Positions 1,659 to 23,890 are shown, counted from the first letter of the stretch. The stretch: DNA of 25,144 bases from a virus (IMGVR_UViG_3300031379_000020), one strand, 5' to 3'. Program-made: numbers and translations. The notes: a model not told the origin generated them from the letters alone.

Positions 1659-2177
1659 ATGGAGAAAAAAGTAATAGAAGGATTTGAGGACTATGAAGTT
1701 ATATCTGATGGGAGGGTATATAGTTTAAGAAGAAAACTATATTTGAAGCCGCTTATACACTATTTAGGTTATCATAGGGTAGTTTTACAGAAATATGGAA
1801 AACGACATCAGAAATATATTGCTAGATTAGTTGCTGCAGCTTTCATTCCTAACCCCGAAAATAAGCATGAAGTCAATCATAAGGACGGTAATAAAGCTAA
1901 TAATGATAAATCTAATTTGGAGTGGTCTACACGATCTGAAAATATATTACATGCATTTCGTATAGGATTAAAACACAAATCACCAAACGCCGGGATGAAA
2001 CCGGTATTAATTGATGTATACGATTACAAAACAGGCGAGTTTAAATCTTTTCATTCATCTATGACGGAGGCGGCTAGGATCTGTGGTGTTCATAGAGCGG
2101 CTATTCACCGTGTTTTAACTGGAGAATGTAATCACGCAAAAGGATTAACTTTTAAAAAAATAAAAACAAATGGCTAA
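1659..2177 (+). CDS. Free-standing HNH homing endonuclease (NUMOD4 - HNH - NUMOD1/IENR1 architecture)
   Basis: N-terminal IEGFEDYEVISDGRVYS (NUMOD4-like), core IARLVAAAFIPNPENKHEVNHKDGNKANNDKSNLEWSTRSEN (HNH_3-like), C-terminal FHSSMTEAARICGVHRAAIHRVLTG..NHAKGLTF (NUMOD1-like HTH). Confidence 0.92.
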   Translation: MEKKVIEGFEDYEVISDGRVYSLRRKLYLKPLIHYLGYHRVVLQKYGKRHQKYIARLVAAAFIPNPENKHEVNHKDGNKANNDKSNLEWSTRSENILHAFRIGLKHKSPNAGMKPVLIDVYDYKTGEFKSFHSSMTEAARICGVHRAAIHRVLTGECNHAKGLTFKKIKTNG

Positions 2178-18788: not shown

Positions 18789-21360
18789 AATATTGACTTT
18801 CATAGATAAAGGTTCCTCTCAGGAACTCTACAGAGATACACTCAAAACACTGATGGTGAGCGTGATTGGTATACCAGAGGATGAACTGTCTTTTGAGTAT
18901 TGGCCCGGGAATGATGGGGCTGTTAATAAGATTGATAGCTATAATCCAGACATTGTGTTCGTATGTGGTGAGGAAGCCCTGAATCACACATTACGAGTTA
19001 AGGGTATTAAAAGAATGTCCGGACAGATAAAGGAGTGGAATGGTAGAATGATTGTTCCTCTTCTTTCCCCGGGTTACATATCCAGCCATCCATCAGAGCT
19101 CGCACCTTATGCCGAATCGATTCAACGGGCATATATGGTTGCTGGCGGAGAAGAAATTAAAGAACCGGAAAACGAGTTCGAAATAATCCATACCTTTCAG
19201 GAATTGCTCCCGTACCTACCATACCTGAGCAATGCATCTGTTGTATCATTTGACTTTGAGACAACAACCCTTACAGATATGGGTACCTTCGATCCAAATT
19301 TTCGGCTCAGGGGCCTGGCGTTAACATATCAAATAGGATCAGCCATTTTCTTAGATTTGGAAGATATGTCTGCCGATGATATTCGGCATGTAGCCATGGC
19401 CCTTGACGAAAAAGTGTTCGGTAACCCGGACATCATTAAAATTGGTCATTATGTAAAGTTCGACATGCATTGTGCTGTCAAACTAGGTATTAAGCAATTC
19501 AAAGGTCGGTTTCACTGTACCATGCTCATGGCACAGTTGTTGGATGAGACTACGCCAAATGGATTAAAGTATCTTGTCAGTGTGCATTTCCCGGCATTCG
19601 CAGGGTATGAGAAGAAGCTACAGGGAACTAAATGGGAGGACATCCCCATGGAAATACTGGCTCCGTATGGTGCACTTGATTCAGATCTCACCCTTCGCCT
19701 CTATGTATACTTCACAAACATTATGTTAAAGGAACATCCTAGAGTATATAATTTATTCAGGACTCTCACAGTTCCGGCAACCATGGCCTTATTCCAGGCT
19801 GAACAGAATGGCATGCTCATAGATAGGCAGTATTTAAACGATGCTATCGTAGCTACAGAAGCTGATATCATTGAGCAGGAGCAGAAACTGCGACACAATA
19901 AGACCGTGAAAAAGTTTCAGGCGCACAGGGATGAGGTGTTTAAACATAACATGATTACCAAACTTGAGGATAAGATTGTGCGAGAGGGTGAGAGGGAGTT
20001 TGCAGAGACCCCGGCAGATTGCAGGGATAAGCGAGTATCAATCCTTGAGCAGGAATTAATGGTGGCTGATATAGCGCAGCAGATAAAAATTCAGGCTAGG
20101 ATAACAAAGGAGAAGGAGAAAAAATATGGTCCTACGCCAAAGGAGGCCAGCCTTAATAGGATAGCTATACTTCAACTGAAAATAAACGCCTGGAAAACTG
20201 GTAGTGTTACCTCTAGTGAACCTATTAATTTTGCTAGTCCACTGCAGATGAATGAGTTGATATATGGAATTAAAGGCTTTGCTTTTGATCCCCCACAGGA
20301 CCCTATAACCGGTGAATTGAAGAGCGGTACCGGTAAAGAAGTATTGAATTATATTCGTGATAAATCAAGCTTCCTGGATAATTTATTGGCTTATCGCCAG
20401 CTGACTAAGATCCTGAGCACTTATTTGATATCTATTCGTGATAAAATGGGTAAAGATAATAAGATCCATTCGAGTTTTAATCAGCATATTGCAAAAACCG
20501 GTAGATTAAGTTCTAATAATCCAAATCTACAGAATATTATCGCCCGGACTAAATATGAAGTAGTAGAGGAGGCAGTAAAACGAGTGAAGAGATCCTTTAC
20601 AGTTCCTGAAGGGTATACTTTGACCCAAGCTGACTATTCTCAGGCAGAATTGCGATTGATAGCTCATTACTCTCAGGACAAGCGAATGATGAAAGCTTAT
20701 CTGGCTGATCAGGATCTGCATGAAATTACAGCGGCTAATGCCAAGGGCTTATCCCTGGCGAAGTGGAAAGAGCTGGATGATAAAGAGAGGAAAGAGAGTA
20801 GGTTTGAGGCTAAGGCTGAGAATTTCGGACTCATTTACGGGATGTCTGCCGGCGGGTACCGGGACTATGCCAGGGTCCAATATGGAATTATCATGGGTAA
20901 AAAGAAAGCAGAGGAACGACGAAATGATTTCTTTGATTTATATCCAGGTCTATTATCTTATCACCATACTTATAAGGCCAAGGCGCGGAAATTTGGTTAC
21001 GTCAGGACCTTGTTCGGGAGAAAAGTAAGACTACCCGATCTAAAAAGTTTTAACAGAATTAAAGTCGGACACGCGGAACGGAATGCTATTAATTCTCCGA
21101 TCCAGGGTACAGCCGGCGAAATGACTATATTTGCATTTGCCCTATTACAGCCCATTTTGGACAAGCGGGTGATTTTTGTCAATACGATACATGATTCGAT
21201 ACTTTATTATATACCAGATGATATTCTGGAAGAAACGATTAATTTGATCAAAATAGTTATGGAGAACTTACCTATTGAAACATACTTTGATATGACTTTA
21301 TCATTGCCTATGAAAGCAGATTTTGAATCTAGTAAAGAAAGTTGGGGGTGGTTACAATAA
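18781..21360 (+). CDS. polA: Family A DNA polymerase with N-terminal UDG-like domain, 3'-5' exonuclease and a large thumb insertion
   Basis: Exo I SFDFETT, Exo II HYVKFD, Exo III YGALD, TGRLSSNNPNLQN, motif A ADYSQAELR, motif B RFEAKAENFGLIYG (Phe at the E. coli 762 equivalent), motif C TIHDS. Confidence 0.95.
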   Translation: MPKILTFIDKGSSQELYRDTLKTLMVSVIGIPEDELSFEYWPGNDGAVNKIDSYNPDIVFVCGEEALNHTLRVKGIKRMSGQIKEWNGRMIVPLLSPGYISSHPSELAPYAESIQRAYMVAGGEEIKEPENEFEIIHTFQELLPYLPYLSNASVVSFDFETTTLTDMGTFDPNFRLRGLALTYQIGSAIFLDLEDMSADDIRHVAMALDEKVFGNPDIIKIGHYVKFDMHCAVKLGIKQFKGRFHCTMLMAQLLDETTPNGLKYLVSVHFPAFAGYEKKLQGTKWEDIPMEILAPYGALDSDLTLRLYVYFTNIMLKEHPRVYNLFRTLTVPATMALFQAEQNGMLIDRQYLNDAIVATEADIIEQEQKLRHNKTVKKFQAHRDEVFKHNMITKLEDKIVREGEREFAETPADCRDKRVSILEQELMVADIAQQIKIQARITKEKEKKYGPTPKEASLNRIAILQLKINAWKTGSVTSSEPINFASPLQMNELIYGIKGFAFDPPQDPITGELKSGTGKEVLNYIRDKSSFLDNLLAYRQLTKILSTYLISIRDKMGKDNKIHSSFNQHIAKTGRLSSNNPNLQNIIARTKYEVVEEAVKRVKRSFTVPEGYTLTQADYSQAELRLIAHYSQDKRMMKAYLADQDLHEITAANAKGLSLAKWKELDDKERKESRFEAKAENFGLIYGMSAGGYRDYARVQYGIIMGKKKAEERRNDFFDLYPGLLSYHHTYKAKARKFGYVRTLFGRKVRLPDLKSFNRIKVGHAERNAINSPIQGTAGEMTIFAFALLQPILDKRVIFVNTIHDSILYYIPDDILEETINLIKIVMENLPIETYFDMTLSLPMKADFESSKESWGWLQ

Positions 21361-21398
21361 TGATAATTCACACTTTAATAGTAGGATTTGAGAATTAT
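21360..21398 (+). pseudogene. 5' remnant (13 codons) of a second NUMOD4-HNH endonuclease gene
   Basis: ATG overlaps the polA TAA (TAATG). Encodes MIIHTLIVGFENY, and 18 of its last 21 nt match 1674-1694 (IEGFEDY) of the intact HNH gene. Confidence 0.75.
21395..21398 (+). other. Predicted target/transposon-adjacent motif TTAT (left cleavage site, likely TnpB TAM)
   Basis: The left-end guide tetramer AAAA (21413-21416) predicts TTnT by the IS608 guide-pairing rule, and TTAT lies 14 nt upstream of it. HNH homology also breaks here. Confidence 0.65.
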
Positions 21399-21529
21399 CC
21401 TGTCTTAACGAGAAAACCATTTCCTTCAGGCAGTGGATGAATCGTTTTATGTAGGATATTAGTAAATAGTGGATTTTTCTGTTGTAGAACATAGAAAATC
21501 ATGAAACTTTCTTGAAAATATTCTGTAAA

Positions 21530-21562
21530 ATTGAATAAAGTTGCAAACGACAAATATCTTCG
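21530..21562 (+). promoter_or_regulatory. Possible Bacteroidota-type promoter for tnpB (near-leaderless)
   Basis: ATTG, 21 nt, then TATCTTCG (one mismatch to TAnnTTTG), 4 nt before ATG 21567. Confidence 0.4.
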
Positions 21563-21566
21563 TATA

Positions 21567-22730
21567 ATGTTAAAGGCTTTTAAATATAGATTGTATCCTA
21601 CAGAAACACAAGCCGAATTGATAAATAAACATATCGGTAGCTGTCGTTTTCTGTGGAACTTAGCTTTGGAAACTAAGCAAATTGCATATACTGGGAATAG
21701 GGTTAATCTCAATTGTTTTGATCTTAACAACCAACTTCCTGATCTTAAAAATGAATTAGTATGGCTAAAAGAGATTAACAGCCAGTCTTTACAGGCTGTC
21801 ACTCGTATTTTAGATAATGCCTTTACTAATTTCTTCAAAGGACGGGCTAATTTCCCCAAGTTTAAATCTAAGCATAATAGAATCCAGTCATTCCATATAC
21901 CGCAAAGTGTTTCATTAAACGGGGATAAACTCATTATTCCAAAATTTAAAGGTGGGATTTTAATTGTTTTGCATCGACCAGTCAAAGGATTAATAAGGCA
22001 AGCTACAATTAGTAGAACGCCAACAGGAAAATACTTTGTTTCTATACTCTGTGAGACCAATGAACAAAATAAGCCTAAAGTAAAGATCACTGAAAATACA
22101 ACAGTAGGAATAGACTTGGGAATCAAAACATTTCTTGTGGCTTCCGATGGGAGCGAGTTTGATAATCCTAAATTTCTACGTAAAGCACAATCAAGACTTA
22201 AATATTTACAGCGCAGATGTTCTAAGTACAAAGGGAAGCAAACAAAATTCAGGCTGGCTACATTGCATGAAAAAGTAGCTAACCAACGTAAAGATTTTCT
22301 ACACAAAACCTCAACTAAATTGATTAGTGAGAACCAAACTATCGCTATTGAGGATTTGAATATTTCCGGTATGGTAAAAAACCACTGTCTTGCACAATCA
22401 ATAAGTGATGCAGGATGGTTAATGTTTGTAACTATGCTGGAATATAAAGCGGAGTGGTATGGAAAGAACATCTTAAAGATAGGTCGCTTTGATCCATCCT
22501 CAAAGACTTGTTCTAACTGCGGATATATCAATAAAGAGTTAGAACTTAAAGACAGGGAATGGAATTGCCCTTCTTGTGGTTCTGTTCTTGATCGTGATAT
22601 TAATGCTGCTGTCAACATAAAAACATTCGCTTTAAAAAATCATTTGTCTAGGGAACCTAGACTTAAAAATCAGGACGAACTGCCGACATTAGTCGGAGTG
22701 ACGACTCCCGAAGCCATCTCCTTTAGGTGA
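21567..22730 (+). CDS. tnpB: RNA-guided endonuclease TnpB, catalytic residues intact
   Basis: MLKAFKYRLYPT N-terminus, RuvC-I VGIDLG, RuvC-II IAIEDL, zinc finger CSNC/CPSC, RuvC-III DRDINAA. The ORF track's TTG start at 21531 is probably too far upstream. Confidence 0.95.
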   Translation: MLKAFKYRLYPTETQAELINKHIGSCRFLWNLALETKQIAYTGNRVNLNCFDLNNQLPDLKNELVWLKEINSQSLQAVTRILDNAFTNFFKGRANFPKFKSKHNRIQSFHIPQSVSLNGDKLIIPKFKGGILIVLHRPVKGLIRQATISRTPTGKYFVSILCETNEQNKPKVKITENTTVGIDLGIKTFLVASDGSEFDNPKFLRKAQSRLKYLQRRCSKYKGKQTKFRLATLHEKVANQRKDFLHKTSTKLISENQTIAIEDLNISGMVKNHCLAQSISDAGWLMFVTMLEYKAEWYGKNILKIGRFDPSSKTCSNCGYINKELELKDREWNCPSCGSVLDRDINAAVNIKTFALKNHLSREPRLKNQDELPTLVGVTTPEAISFR

Positions 22731-22761
22731 TGGTAGTTCACAGTGTCTTAAAAGGTAAATA
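22640..22761 (+). ncRNA. Predicted TnpB omegaRNA (reRNA) scaffold plus ~20-nt guide from the right flank; 5' end approximate
   Basis: Hairpins GTCTAGG-gaa-CCTAGAC (22646-22662), CCGAC-atta-GTCGG (22683-22696) and the right-end hairpin overlap the tnpB 3' end, as established for TnpB systems. The guide would begin AGTGTCTTAAAAGGTAAATA at 22742. Confidence 0.7.
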
Positions 22762-22798
22762 TAATCATACAAAAGGATTAACATTTAAAACAATTTGA
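22742..22798 (+). pseudogene. 3' remnant (18 codons + stop) of the second HNH endonuclease gene (NUMOD1 tail)
   Basis: Encodes SVLKGKYNHTKGLTFKTI-stop, versus RVLTGECNHAKGLTFKKI at 2109-2162: 12/18 aa and 42/54 nt identical, ungapped. Confidence 0.8.
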
Positions 22799-22837
22799 TA
22801 CGTTTATTAACACATTGCATTAAAAATTTTATTTATT

Positions 22838-23890
22838 ATGATTGATCAGAACAAATTAAAAGAATTTCAAGCGGGCCTTGACGAAAAAGACGGCCCTAGT
22901 AGTTTTTTCAACGCCAGCAAAATTGTTGGCTCGATGGATTTTCGAATTCTGGACCCCCTTCCCAACCTGGACGGATTGTATGCCCTTGAGGTAGCGTACT
23001 GGTGGATAGGGAAAGTTAAAGTGAATCTCCCAACCGCGTTTAGTGATCATGATCAGGTTCAACTCTGTCTTGACGACGCGAAATCAGCTAAGAATGCTGA
23101 GCTGGATAAGTTATTAGATCTCCGTGATGATTACGGGAATGTGAAGCTGCGTAAGCAGATTGAATATTGGATTCCAGGACTTATTTTTGATTGGGAATTA
23201 GAAGGTGATCAGATTGTAGGGATTTGGAACGATGATGCAGAGGGCACATTAAATGTCGATGCTATCAGTCGGTATGTTAGGGATGATGAAGGTAAAATTT
23301 TTACGTGTAAGATTCAGCTTATGAAAGCTATCAACCGTGAAGCAACTACCAGGGGTGGATCATTGATGTTTGATAAGGATAAAGGATTCAATTTGATTCT
23401 TGGTAAAACTGGAGAGAAGCGGAAGACCGTTTACAGTGCAAGCAAGGCTGATTATCTGCCCATGCCGGCGAAGTATTATGGTGAAGGTACCCCAGATATA
23501 GTGAATATCTGTAAGGGATCAATGTTTACTGATGATTATATCTACAGACTCCTGGGTGAATATTTGTATGGAGAAGTATTGGCTGAACGTACTGAGGATG
23601 ATTATCTTTTCCCTGAGATAAGAGAAGCATTAAAGAAGGATGCAAAGGAGCCTGAGGCGACGAAGCCATCAAGGCCTACCAGGGGTGGAGTTAGTACCCC
23701 GAAAGCAGAGCCTGAGGCAGATGCTCCAAAAGATGAGGCCCCGGCAGCAGAAGCTACGACAGCGGCGCCGACAAGGCCAAGCACATCAGCTAGACCGGCG
23801 ACCAAGGCAGATGTTACGGCTAATACAACCAGGCCTCCACGTGGAGCTGGCGTTAAGCGCAACATGACAGACGATATGCAGGATGTCTAG
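22838..23890 (+). CDS. Putative single-stranded DNA-binding protein (T4 gp32-like) with a long disordered C-terminal tail
   Basis: FFNASK...DFRILDP N-terminus, aromatic-rich core, FNLILGKTGEKRKTVYS, P/A/T/E/K-rich tail ending in acidic DDMQDV, located in the replication module. Confidence 0.6.
   Translation: MIDQNKLKEFQAGLDEKDGPSSFFNASKIVGSMDFRILDPLPNLDGLYALEVAYWWIGKVKVNLPTAFSDHDQVQLCLDDAKSAKNAELDKLLDLRDDYGNVKLRKQIEYWIPGLIFDWELEGDQIVGIWNDDAEGTLNVDAISRYVRDDEGKIFTCKIQLMKAINREATTRGGSLMFDKDKGFNLILGKTGEKRKTVYSASKADYLPMPAKYYGEGTPDIVNICKGSMFTDDYIYRLLGEYLYGEVLAERTEDDYLFPEIREALKKDAKEPEATKPSRPTRGGVSTPKAEPEADAPKDEAPAAEATTAAPTRPSTSARPATKADVTANTTRPPRGAGVKRNMTDDMQDV

Follow-up and report, generated by a model that had tools for sequence, protein, structure and literature searches.

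A TnpB Insertion Sequence Apparently Nested in the Remnant of an HNH Homing Endonuclease Gene Downstream of polA in an Uncultured Tailed Phage

Genomic Context of the polA–gp350 Locus

The viral sequence IMGVR_UViG_3300031379_000020 (25,144 nt; hereafter the window, meaning the whole stretch of DNA that was analyzed) is part of the genome of an uncultured tailed phage, with genes for a tail fibre, a DnaB-like helicase, a primase, a helicase, a family A DNA polymerase (polA), a NinB-like protein and an endolysin. The locus described here lies between polA and a conserved 350-aa phage gene (gp350), where an IS200/IS605-family insertion sequence (IS) carrying tnpB is bordered on either side by a short remnant of an HNH homing endonuclease gene (Table 1). 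The stop codon of polA and the ATG of the HNH remnant overlap in the sequence TAATG, and the IS is co-oriented with the neighbouring genes. The 1,477 bp that separate polA from gp350 appear to consist of two nested selfish elements, with the TnpB IS inside the HNH remnant.

A megablast search of positions 20900–23300 gave no match among GenBank phages and no close cultured relative; the best polA match among cultured phages was only ~30% identical. Exact-protein look-ups of gp350, TnpB and the NinB-like gene returned nothing on record, and no relative emerged from a scan of IMG/VR with a polA peptide pattern. Relatives came instead from the protein database, in which polA homologs 58–78% identical to that of the window were located in syntenic phage contigs, several of them from marine sediment. 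In seven loci standing for four related phage lineages (L081–L087), the spacer between polA and gp350 was 22–38 bp long, vs. 1,477 bp in the window. These short spacers indicate that the segment from 21360 to ~22798 is an insertion specific to the window's lineage, so that both the HNH gene and the IS are recent arrivals at the locus. Several of the related polA genes (P0003, P0028, P0029, P0036, and P0046) contained inteins with LAGLIDADG or HNH_3 domains, suggesting that polA is a recurrent landing site, or hotspot, of selfish elements in this phage group, in keeping with the view of the original prediction (a reading of the DNA that preceded this analysis) that a position next to polA is a typical homing site.

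Table 1. Features of the polA–gp350 locus and of the intact paralog used as a reference (positions counted from the first nucleotide of the window).
Feature	Position	Strand	Basis
HNH N-terminal remnant, 13 codons, MIIHTLIVGFENY	21360–21398	+	Paralog match 18/21 to 20/23 nt; same N-terminus and codons in intact homologs
HNH C-terminal remnant, 18 codons plus stop, SVLKGKYNHTKGLTFKTI	22742–22798	+	Paralog match 42/54 nt, 12/18 aa; PF22083
Complete non-autonomous (tnpA-less) IS200/IS605-family element, 1,343 bp	21399–22741	+	Alignment with >100 copies in unrelated flanks
Transposon-adjacent motif (TAM)/left cleavage motif TTAT	21395–21398	+	Formed by the remnant codons AAT TAT; covaries with the DNA guide
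Left-end terminus: 14 nt, guide AAAA (21413–21416), imperfect hairpin CCATTTCC-TTCA-GGCAGTGG (21417–21436)	21399–21436	+	Homologous to L109, L089, and L088
tnpB, 387 aa, apparently intact	21567–22730	+	HTH_OrfB_IS605 PF12323 (1.9e-15), OrfB_IS605 PF01385 (6.3e-26), Cas12f1-like_TNB PF07282 (6.1e-25)
Predicted omega-RNA scaffold, 3' part: guide GAAG (22710–22713), hairpin (22714–22733), TTCAC (22737–22741)	22640–22741 (start approximate, 5' limit inferred)	+	Consensus fold
Predicted omega-RNA guide, AGTGTCTTAAAAGGTA..., first 16–20 nt past the right end	22742–22761	+	Position from the TnpB mechanism (PMC10055086); equals the start of the HNH C-terminal remnant
Intact paralogous HNH homing endonuclease, 172 aa (reference)	1659–2177	+	Pfam NUMOD4, HNH_3, I-HmuI_NUMOD-like
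polA, family A DNA polymerase, 859 aa	18781–21360	+	Pfam DNA_pol_A (9.7e-80), DNA_pol_A_exo1; relatives 58–78% identical
gp350, conserved 350-aa phage gene	22838–23890	+	Synteny with L081–L087: directly after polA in relatives
Antisense open frame over tnpB and left end, 407 codons	21395–22618	-	Property of the whole clade

HNH Homing Endonuclease Remnant in the Flanks

The identities to the intact HNH gene that had first been reported for the two flanks, 18/21 nt on the left (20/23 if the alignment is extended) and 42/54 nt and 12/18 aa on the right, were reproduced in full, as was the in-frame ORF (open reading frame) of 31 codons that results when 21360–21398 is joined to 22742–22798. This in-frame statement could be made because the boundaries of the IS were fixed by comparison with other copies. 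The local alignment score of the right flank was 61, against 20.7 ± 2.6 in shuffled sequences, and none of the 500 shuffles reached it. The same flank matched positions 29–46 of 46 of PF22083 (I-HmuI NUMOD-like; E = 1.6e-4) without use of the paralog, with a score under the gathering cut-off solely since the sequence is a fragment; the C-terminal NUMOD-like DNA-binding helix of the family is present in this match. On the left, the nucleotide score was marginal, being reached by 4 of the 500 shuffles, but was supported by the motif GFE[ND]Y: against 0.011 expected occurrences, the six frames of the 25-kb window contained just two, one in the remnant and one where the intact HNH gene begins.

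Thirteen residues are too short for detection of NUMOD4 by Pfam, and the IVGFENY of the remnant agrees with family N-termini as well as with their codons. Several of the 119 homologs found for the intact gene start with MILRASIEGFENY or MRKIEGFENY and finish with ...VLKGTYKHTHGLTFKLI, while homolog P0092 terminates with ...LVLKGTYKHTHGLTFKLI and a stop, and P0089 carries the identical 15 nt GGA TTT GAG AAT TAT. At the level of sequence comparison, the flanks were thus confirmed as the true termini of a ~165-aa NUMOD4/HNH_3/I-HmuI-like (NUMOD-like) homing endonuclease, and the IS very probably sits in a genuine HNH remnant.

About 138 codons, including the HNH_3 catalytic domain, were absent, and no HNH similarity was found inside or beside the IS. 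The paralog's segment 1695–2108 was without counterpart, as had been claimed for the missing 138-codon core. This is a dead remnant and not a member of the family. The 39-nt and 57-nt flanks had no counterpart in the spacers of the related phages, and a back-translated pattern of the remnant's C-terminus gave no match in IMG/VR. Intact, fused and IS-containing alleles had been envisaged downstream of polA in relatives; the seven loci from the four related lineages carried neither an HNH gene nor a remnant of one.

The IS200/IS605 Element and Its Ends

Relatives of the IS numbered 104 in IMG/VR and 520 in metagenome contigs, with up to 82% identity and differing flanks, indicating that the element is mobile; the window holds a single copy. 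The element is of the tnpA-less IS1341 type, and other complete copies measured 1,310–1,328 bp. The right terminus, ...GGTAGTTCAC, was invariant or conserved in more than 100 copies, placing the right end at 22741. At the left, the last base of the TAM covaried with the 4-nt DNA guide located just 5' of the left-end hairpin, with TTAC/AAAG in 25 copies, TTAT/AAAA in the window, L088, and L152, and TTAA/AAAT in L109. The left end of most copies followed TTTAC with guide AAAG, whereas the window, L088, and L152 had TTAT or TTTAT with AAAA. Pairing between TAM and guide is an established rule for IS608 and ISGst2 (PMC10055086), and this three-way covariation sets the left boundary at 21399. At the right end, TCAC pairs with the guide GAAG, and the left-end hairpin resembles the right-end hairpin. 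Folding energies did not differ from those of shuffled sequences (right end z -1.5; the left-end hairpin was not the minimum-energy fold), and the case for the terminal hairpins therefore rests on comparison with other copies. There was no target-site duplication, the flanks ...GAATTAT and AGTGTC... being without a common direct repeat.

Exact and degenerate left-end patterns retrieved nothing from IMG/VR, and the two genome matches, in Rudaea and Promethearchaeota, which had no surrounding IS, were set aside as chance. A shared target for the left flanks of L109 and the window (GGATTT..GA..AATTA) was also rejected (p = 0.10), the L109 flank having no Pfam match. Two other copies had duplicated right-end tips: tandem tips ...TTCAC lie 18 nt apart in L120 (3150–3191), and in L060 (5210–5301) the tip is repeated together with its flank, 75 nt apart. 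These duplications look like traces of alternative right-boundary use.

TnpB and the Predicted omega-RNA

The TnpB of the window aligned with ISDra2 TnpB (PDB 8BF8/8EXA) over residues 2–355 (E = 3e-66). The RuvC triad D183, E262, and D344 was aligned to ISDra2 D191, E278, and D361, and both CxxC pairs of the zinc ribbon were kept. The predicted omega-RNA region overlaps the 3' end of tnpB and finishes at the right end of the IS; in the consensus fold of 25 relatives, compensatory changes were found in 10 of the 14 predicted pairs, and the right-end hairpin was both conserved and covarying. Rfam returned no match to an omega-RNA family.

Order of Events

Insertion of an IS200/IS605 element neither deletes nor duplicates target DNA. 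A locus at 2072–3998 of contig ERZ650311 NODE-265 (L135, 35.6 kb, phage-like) illustrates this: there, a related IS splits an otherwise intact NUMOD4/HNH_3 gene at about codon 75 with no sequence lost, and KTLIL/H-REVAKLF (the slash marking the insertion point) reads through after removal of the element. The TnpB of L135 is ~71% identical to that of the window, the right end is the same and the TAM is TTTAC. With L135, this IS clade is seen a second, independent time inside a phage HNH gene, and the locus is read here as a putative 'before' state for the history proposed below. General targeting of HNH genes by this IS family was considered and rejected, as L135 was the only one among ~167 loci in which an HNH gene was split by the IS. 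Since insertion is clean, the 138 codons missing from the window need a second event. The original prediction had held that a TnpB element replaced the HNH nuclease; the IS does lie between in-frame HNH remnants after polA, but a one-step swap is not needed, given the clean insertion in L135 and the details of the junctions.

In the preferred history, a free-standing NUMOD4/HNH_3/NUMOD-like homing endonuclease gene first entered the short polA/gp350 spacer, with its ATG on the polA stop codon. The 1,343-bp IS, of the ISGst2 type, would then have inserted 3' of TTAT in codons 12–13 (AAT TAT); whereas the position is given by the junction itself, the enzyme would presumably have been a Y1 TnpA, needed in trans from an element of the host. 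With the HNH gene already dead, ~138 codons may subsequently have been lost between the right end of the IS and the 3' TTCAC of the gene, either through replication slippage on the 5-nt repeat TTCAC or through a TnpA that chose the look-alike right-end motif downstream. This loss would have left 13 + 18 codons, their in-frame state being a 1-in-3 accident. By the mechanism of the family, the HNH C-terminal remnant would now serve as the guide, and TnpB would cut the excision joint, upon which the element is copied back; TnpB would in this way keep the IS in place, with no homing into IS-free phages.

Both junctions bear on this order. The intact genes P0089 and P0088 have GAG/GAA AAT TAT at the codons equivalent to the left junction, and the TAM was therefore already present in full-length genes. 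At the right junction, the 519-nt paralog has a single TTCAC (2104–2108), and the end of this motif coincides exactly with the paralog position that corresponds to the start of the right flank; the frequency of TTCAC in the window was 7.6e-4 per position. In the work of Meers et al. on ISGst2, the TAM is TTTAT and the right-end motif is TTCAC, and TnpA can erroneously take a TTCAC further downstream as the boundary (PMC10055086). Insertion at the N-terminal TTAT, followed by deletion next to the right end, would be the most economical order, and is held here with confidence slightly above an even balance.

Several observations weigh against this history. The TTCAC that it places at the ancestral locus is taken from the paralog, which shares 78% of the C-terminal 54 nt, and other family members have different codons at this site. 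No allele combining the IS with the HNH core was found, the layout being read on one of the four contigs that share a 145-aa neighbour gene. The left-end hairpin is weak by energy. No Y1 (HUH) TnpA was found in any ORF of the window, and the element is therefore non-autonomous, as most tnpB elements are (PMC10055086). Finally, 9/14 positions at the beginning of the right flank agree with the start of the left end, which could favour insertion into an already shortened gene.

Alternative Readings and Predicted Role of TnpB

The last of these points leads to the alternative in which the deletion came first, a possible order in which we place little confidence. The HNH gene would already have been a stub of 31 codons (...GAG AAT TAT/AGT GTC...) when the IS inserted at the TTAT of the junction and, in a variant of this reading, the likeness of the site to the element's left-end junction may have favoured the insertion. 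Decay of homing endonuclease genes is known, and the resemblance between positions 21399–21412 and 22742–22755 includes an 8-nt run in register (left-end nt 3–10), which makes it an outlier compared to 26 other complete copies (mean 3.9/14, maximum 8 in L152). L152, which is also of the TTAT type, shares the first 6 nt between its left-end start and right flank (514–527 vs. 1818–1831). However, the mean over the other copies equals the random expectation, so that there is no general resemblance of left end and flank. The IS must moreover land within 0–6 nt of the deletion junction in a 93-nt stub, the implied deletion endpoints show no evident microhomology with the paralog as proxy, and the paralog's TTCAC at the exact junction is left as a coincidence of ~1e-3.

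The sequence at the left-end start is intrinsic to the element, as the start of L109 is homologous and the right flank of L109 unrelated. Over a wider stretch, the paralog's TTCAC/CGTGTTTTAAC matched the junction of the excised circle, in which the right end meets the left end (TTCAC/CCTGTCTTAAC), at 17/24 positions. The match of right flank and left end may be due to chance (roughly 1e-3), or recognition of the joints may extend past the 5-nt motifs. TnpB is unlikely to cleave the left end of its own element, whose junction reads TTAT plus CCTGTCTTAACGAG, given mismatches at the two TAM-adjacent positions. It is also conceivable, though doubtful, that the HNH site was chosen for its resemblance to transposon joints, with TnpA, or TnpB and its guide, reading beyond the 5-nt motif. 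Such mimicry would explain the deletion endpoint and the similarity of guide and left end together, and would make the locus a natural record of IS200/IS605 boundary re-drawing in another selfish gene.

A different reading concerns function. The original prediction proposed that TnpB may now supply the drive, and in this form the TnpB element would have functionally replaced HNH at a homing site, with super-Mendelian drive in co-infections via RNA-guided cutting of rival alleles. TnpB and omega-RNA look intact, the locus adjoins a polA in which relatives carry inteins and HNH domains, and work in bacteria has demonstrated TnpB-driven copying at empty sites that were cleaved (PMC10055086). Nevertheless, the guide together with the TAM TTAT had no other match in the window, and none of the seven related loci offered a TAM or fewer than 4 mismatches over 16 nt. 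The related phages carry no HNH sequence, and hence no targetable remnant, at the locus, and an intact HNH allele would show the right-end-type TTCAC, not a TAM, before the protospacer. The only predicted TnpB substrate is therefore the element's own scarless excision joint (TTAT + guide). A drive appears very improbable on these grounds. As in the preferred history, TnpB is predicted to act here as a retention device, with no sign of RNA-guided homing drive, and this 'cut-and-copy' retention is the canonical role of TnpB (PMC10055086).

In the mirror image of the preferred model, the IS would have inserted at a TTAT before the VLKG codons of the full-length gene, followed by a deletion of codons 14 to ~150 adjacent to the left end, and the TTAT at codons 12–13 could then be a second left cleavage site. 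This reading is very improbable: TTAT was found at the C-terminal site in none of the four intact family genes (0/4), the TTCAC coincidence is left unexplained, and excision of ISGst2 is intolerant of a TAM changed to the right-end motif (PMC10055086). Chance similarity of the flanks, with the IS merely in an intergenic spacer, could draw on the marginal left nucleotide score and on the lack of a Pfam NUMOD4 match in 13 residues, but it is next to negligible and regarded as refuted by the right flank and its independent Pfam match, by the limitation of GFE[ND]Y to two sites, and by the spacers of relatives, which lack such flanks.

Antisense Open Frame over tnpB

The antisense frame listed in Table 1 covers tnpB codons 1 to ~356, in a register whose wobble positions coincide with those of tnpB. 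This wobble-sharing frame was open over a median of 319 codons in 139 distinct relatives, and codon-shuffled controls gave open lengths of ≤204 codons vs. 357 observed. Within the clade of ≥60% identity (n = 87), there were 2.2 antisense stops vs. 8.2 expected when the protein was kept and synonymous codons were resampled, while more distant TnpBs showed no depletion of antisense stops. Ahead of Tyr codons, T and C made up 10% and 1% of the wobble bases; before His/Gln codons, T stood at 4% and C at a normal 13%, and before all other codon starts T made up 28–60%. Both T and C are thus shunned ahead of TAn codons, and T alone ahead of CAn codons. This is the exact pattern of stop avoidance, and it persisted in 34 sequences thinned to <80% mutual identity. 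The open stretch begins at tnpB codon 356–365 and finishes at variable points in the left end, and its product matched no Pfam family. The synonymous-site statistics indicate that the antisense frame is kept stop-free in this TnpB clade by selection.

Other Observations at the Locus

The polA of the window ends in SWGWLQ (21340–21360), vs. SWG[DKQ]LA[AS] before the stop in all of the seven related loci. This altered end may be a co-conversion tract, or a recognition site recoded in the course of the HNH invasion. On the other side of the IS, a sigma-70 promoter-like site (22737–22765, + strand; 11/12 positions) combines TTCACA from the right-end tip with TAT AAT from the remnant codons at a spacing of 17 nt and points at the downstream 350-aa gene; the count of such sites in the region was not above chance.

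A protein from the marine-sediment metagenome LCGC14 had 75% identity to the intact HNH paralog, and L109 (LAZR01), which has the left end closest to that of the window IS, stems from this metagenome as well. Marine sediment is probably the source of the phage and of the IS lineage.

Comparison with Known Systems

Close parallels are ISGst2 and related IS605-family elements of Geobacillus stearothermophilus, which likewise have a TnpB gene, a right-end omega-RNA, subterminal hairpins and covarying guides (PMC10055086). The right-end motif TTCAC is identical, and the TAM has 5 nt in both, TTTAT in ISGst2 and (A)TTAT in the window. Many copies of ISGst2 and its relatives are non-autonomous, as is the window element, and the use of a downstream TTCAC boundary documented for ISGst2 is the mechanism invoked here for the deletion (PMC10055086). 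Unlike ISGst2, the window copy lies in a phage, inside a homing endonuclease gene, and no TnpA is known as its cognate; the comparison with ISGst2 covered motifs and ends. Most relatives in the clade use the IS608-like combination of TTTAC and AAAG, unlike the window copy. ISDra2 TnpB with its omega-RNA (PDB 8EXA, 8BF8, and 8H1J) has the RuvC D-E-D triad and the zinc ribbon in common with the window TnpB, but ISDra2 has the TAM TTGAT and carries tnpA, and the identity of the two proteins is modest.

Lytic phages have been known to carry TnpB-only IS200/IS605 elements since the 2010 description of ISCaje1–3, which are tnpA-less and occur together with homing endonucleases in the virulent Campylobacter phages CP220 and CPt10; they belong to a different TnpB clade, however, and were not reported inside a homing endonuclease gene (PMC2853527). 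TnpB homologs were present in 437 of 50,697 GenBank phage records, and the best cultured-phage match to the window TnpB was in Geobacillus virus E3 (47% identity).

The homing cycle runs through invasion, fixation and decay, and the decay of homing endonuclease genes is textbook knowledge. The remnant has the family termini of I-HmuI-type free-standing NUMOD4/HNH_3 genes, and is likewise tightly packed after a replication gene with an intact paralog elsewhere. It differs from the usual homing cycle in that the whole catalytic core is missing and a transposon insertion would have initiated the decay or at the least made it final. Phage-borne TnpB elements and homing endonuclease genes in decay are both already well known, and the finding is otherwise ordinary. 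Its new aspects are the nesting and a junction at which the use of an alternative right-end motif seems to have left a natural trace.

On this reading, the locus would offer a clean and datable case of one selfish element preying on another within a phage. An intact guide does not by itself make a phage TnpB an RNA-guided homing drive, and there appears to be no rival allele to cut here. The junctions would represent a natural instance of an IS200/IS605 element engaging a look-alike right-end motif outside its boundary, which was previously seen only in the laboratory (PMC10055086), and such use of look-alike motifs may be one route by which IS200/IS605 elements reshape the DNA that adjoins them.

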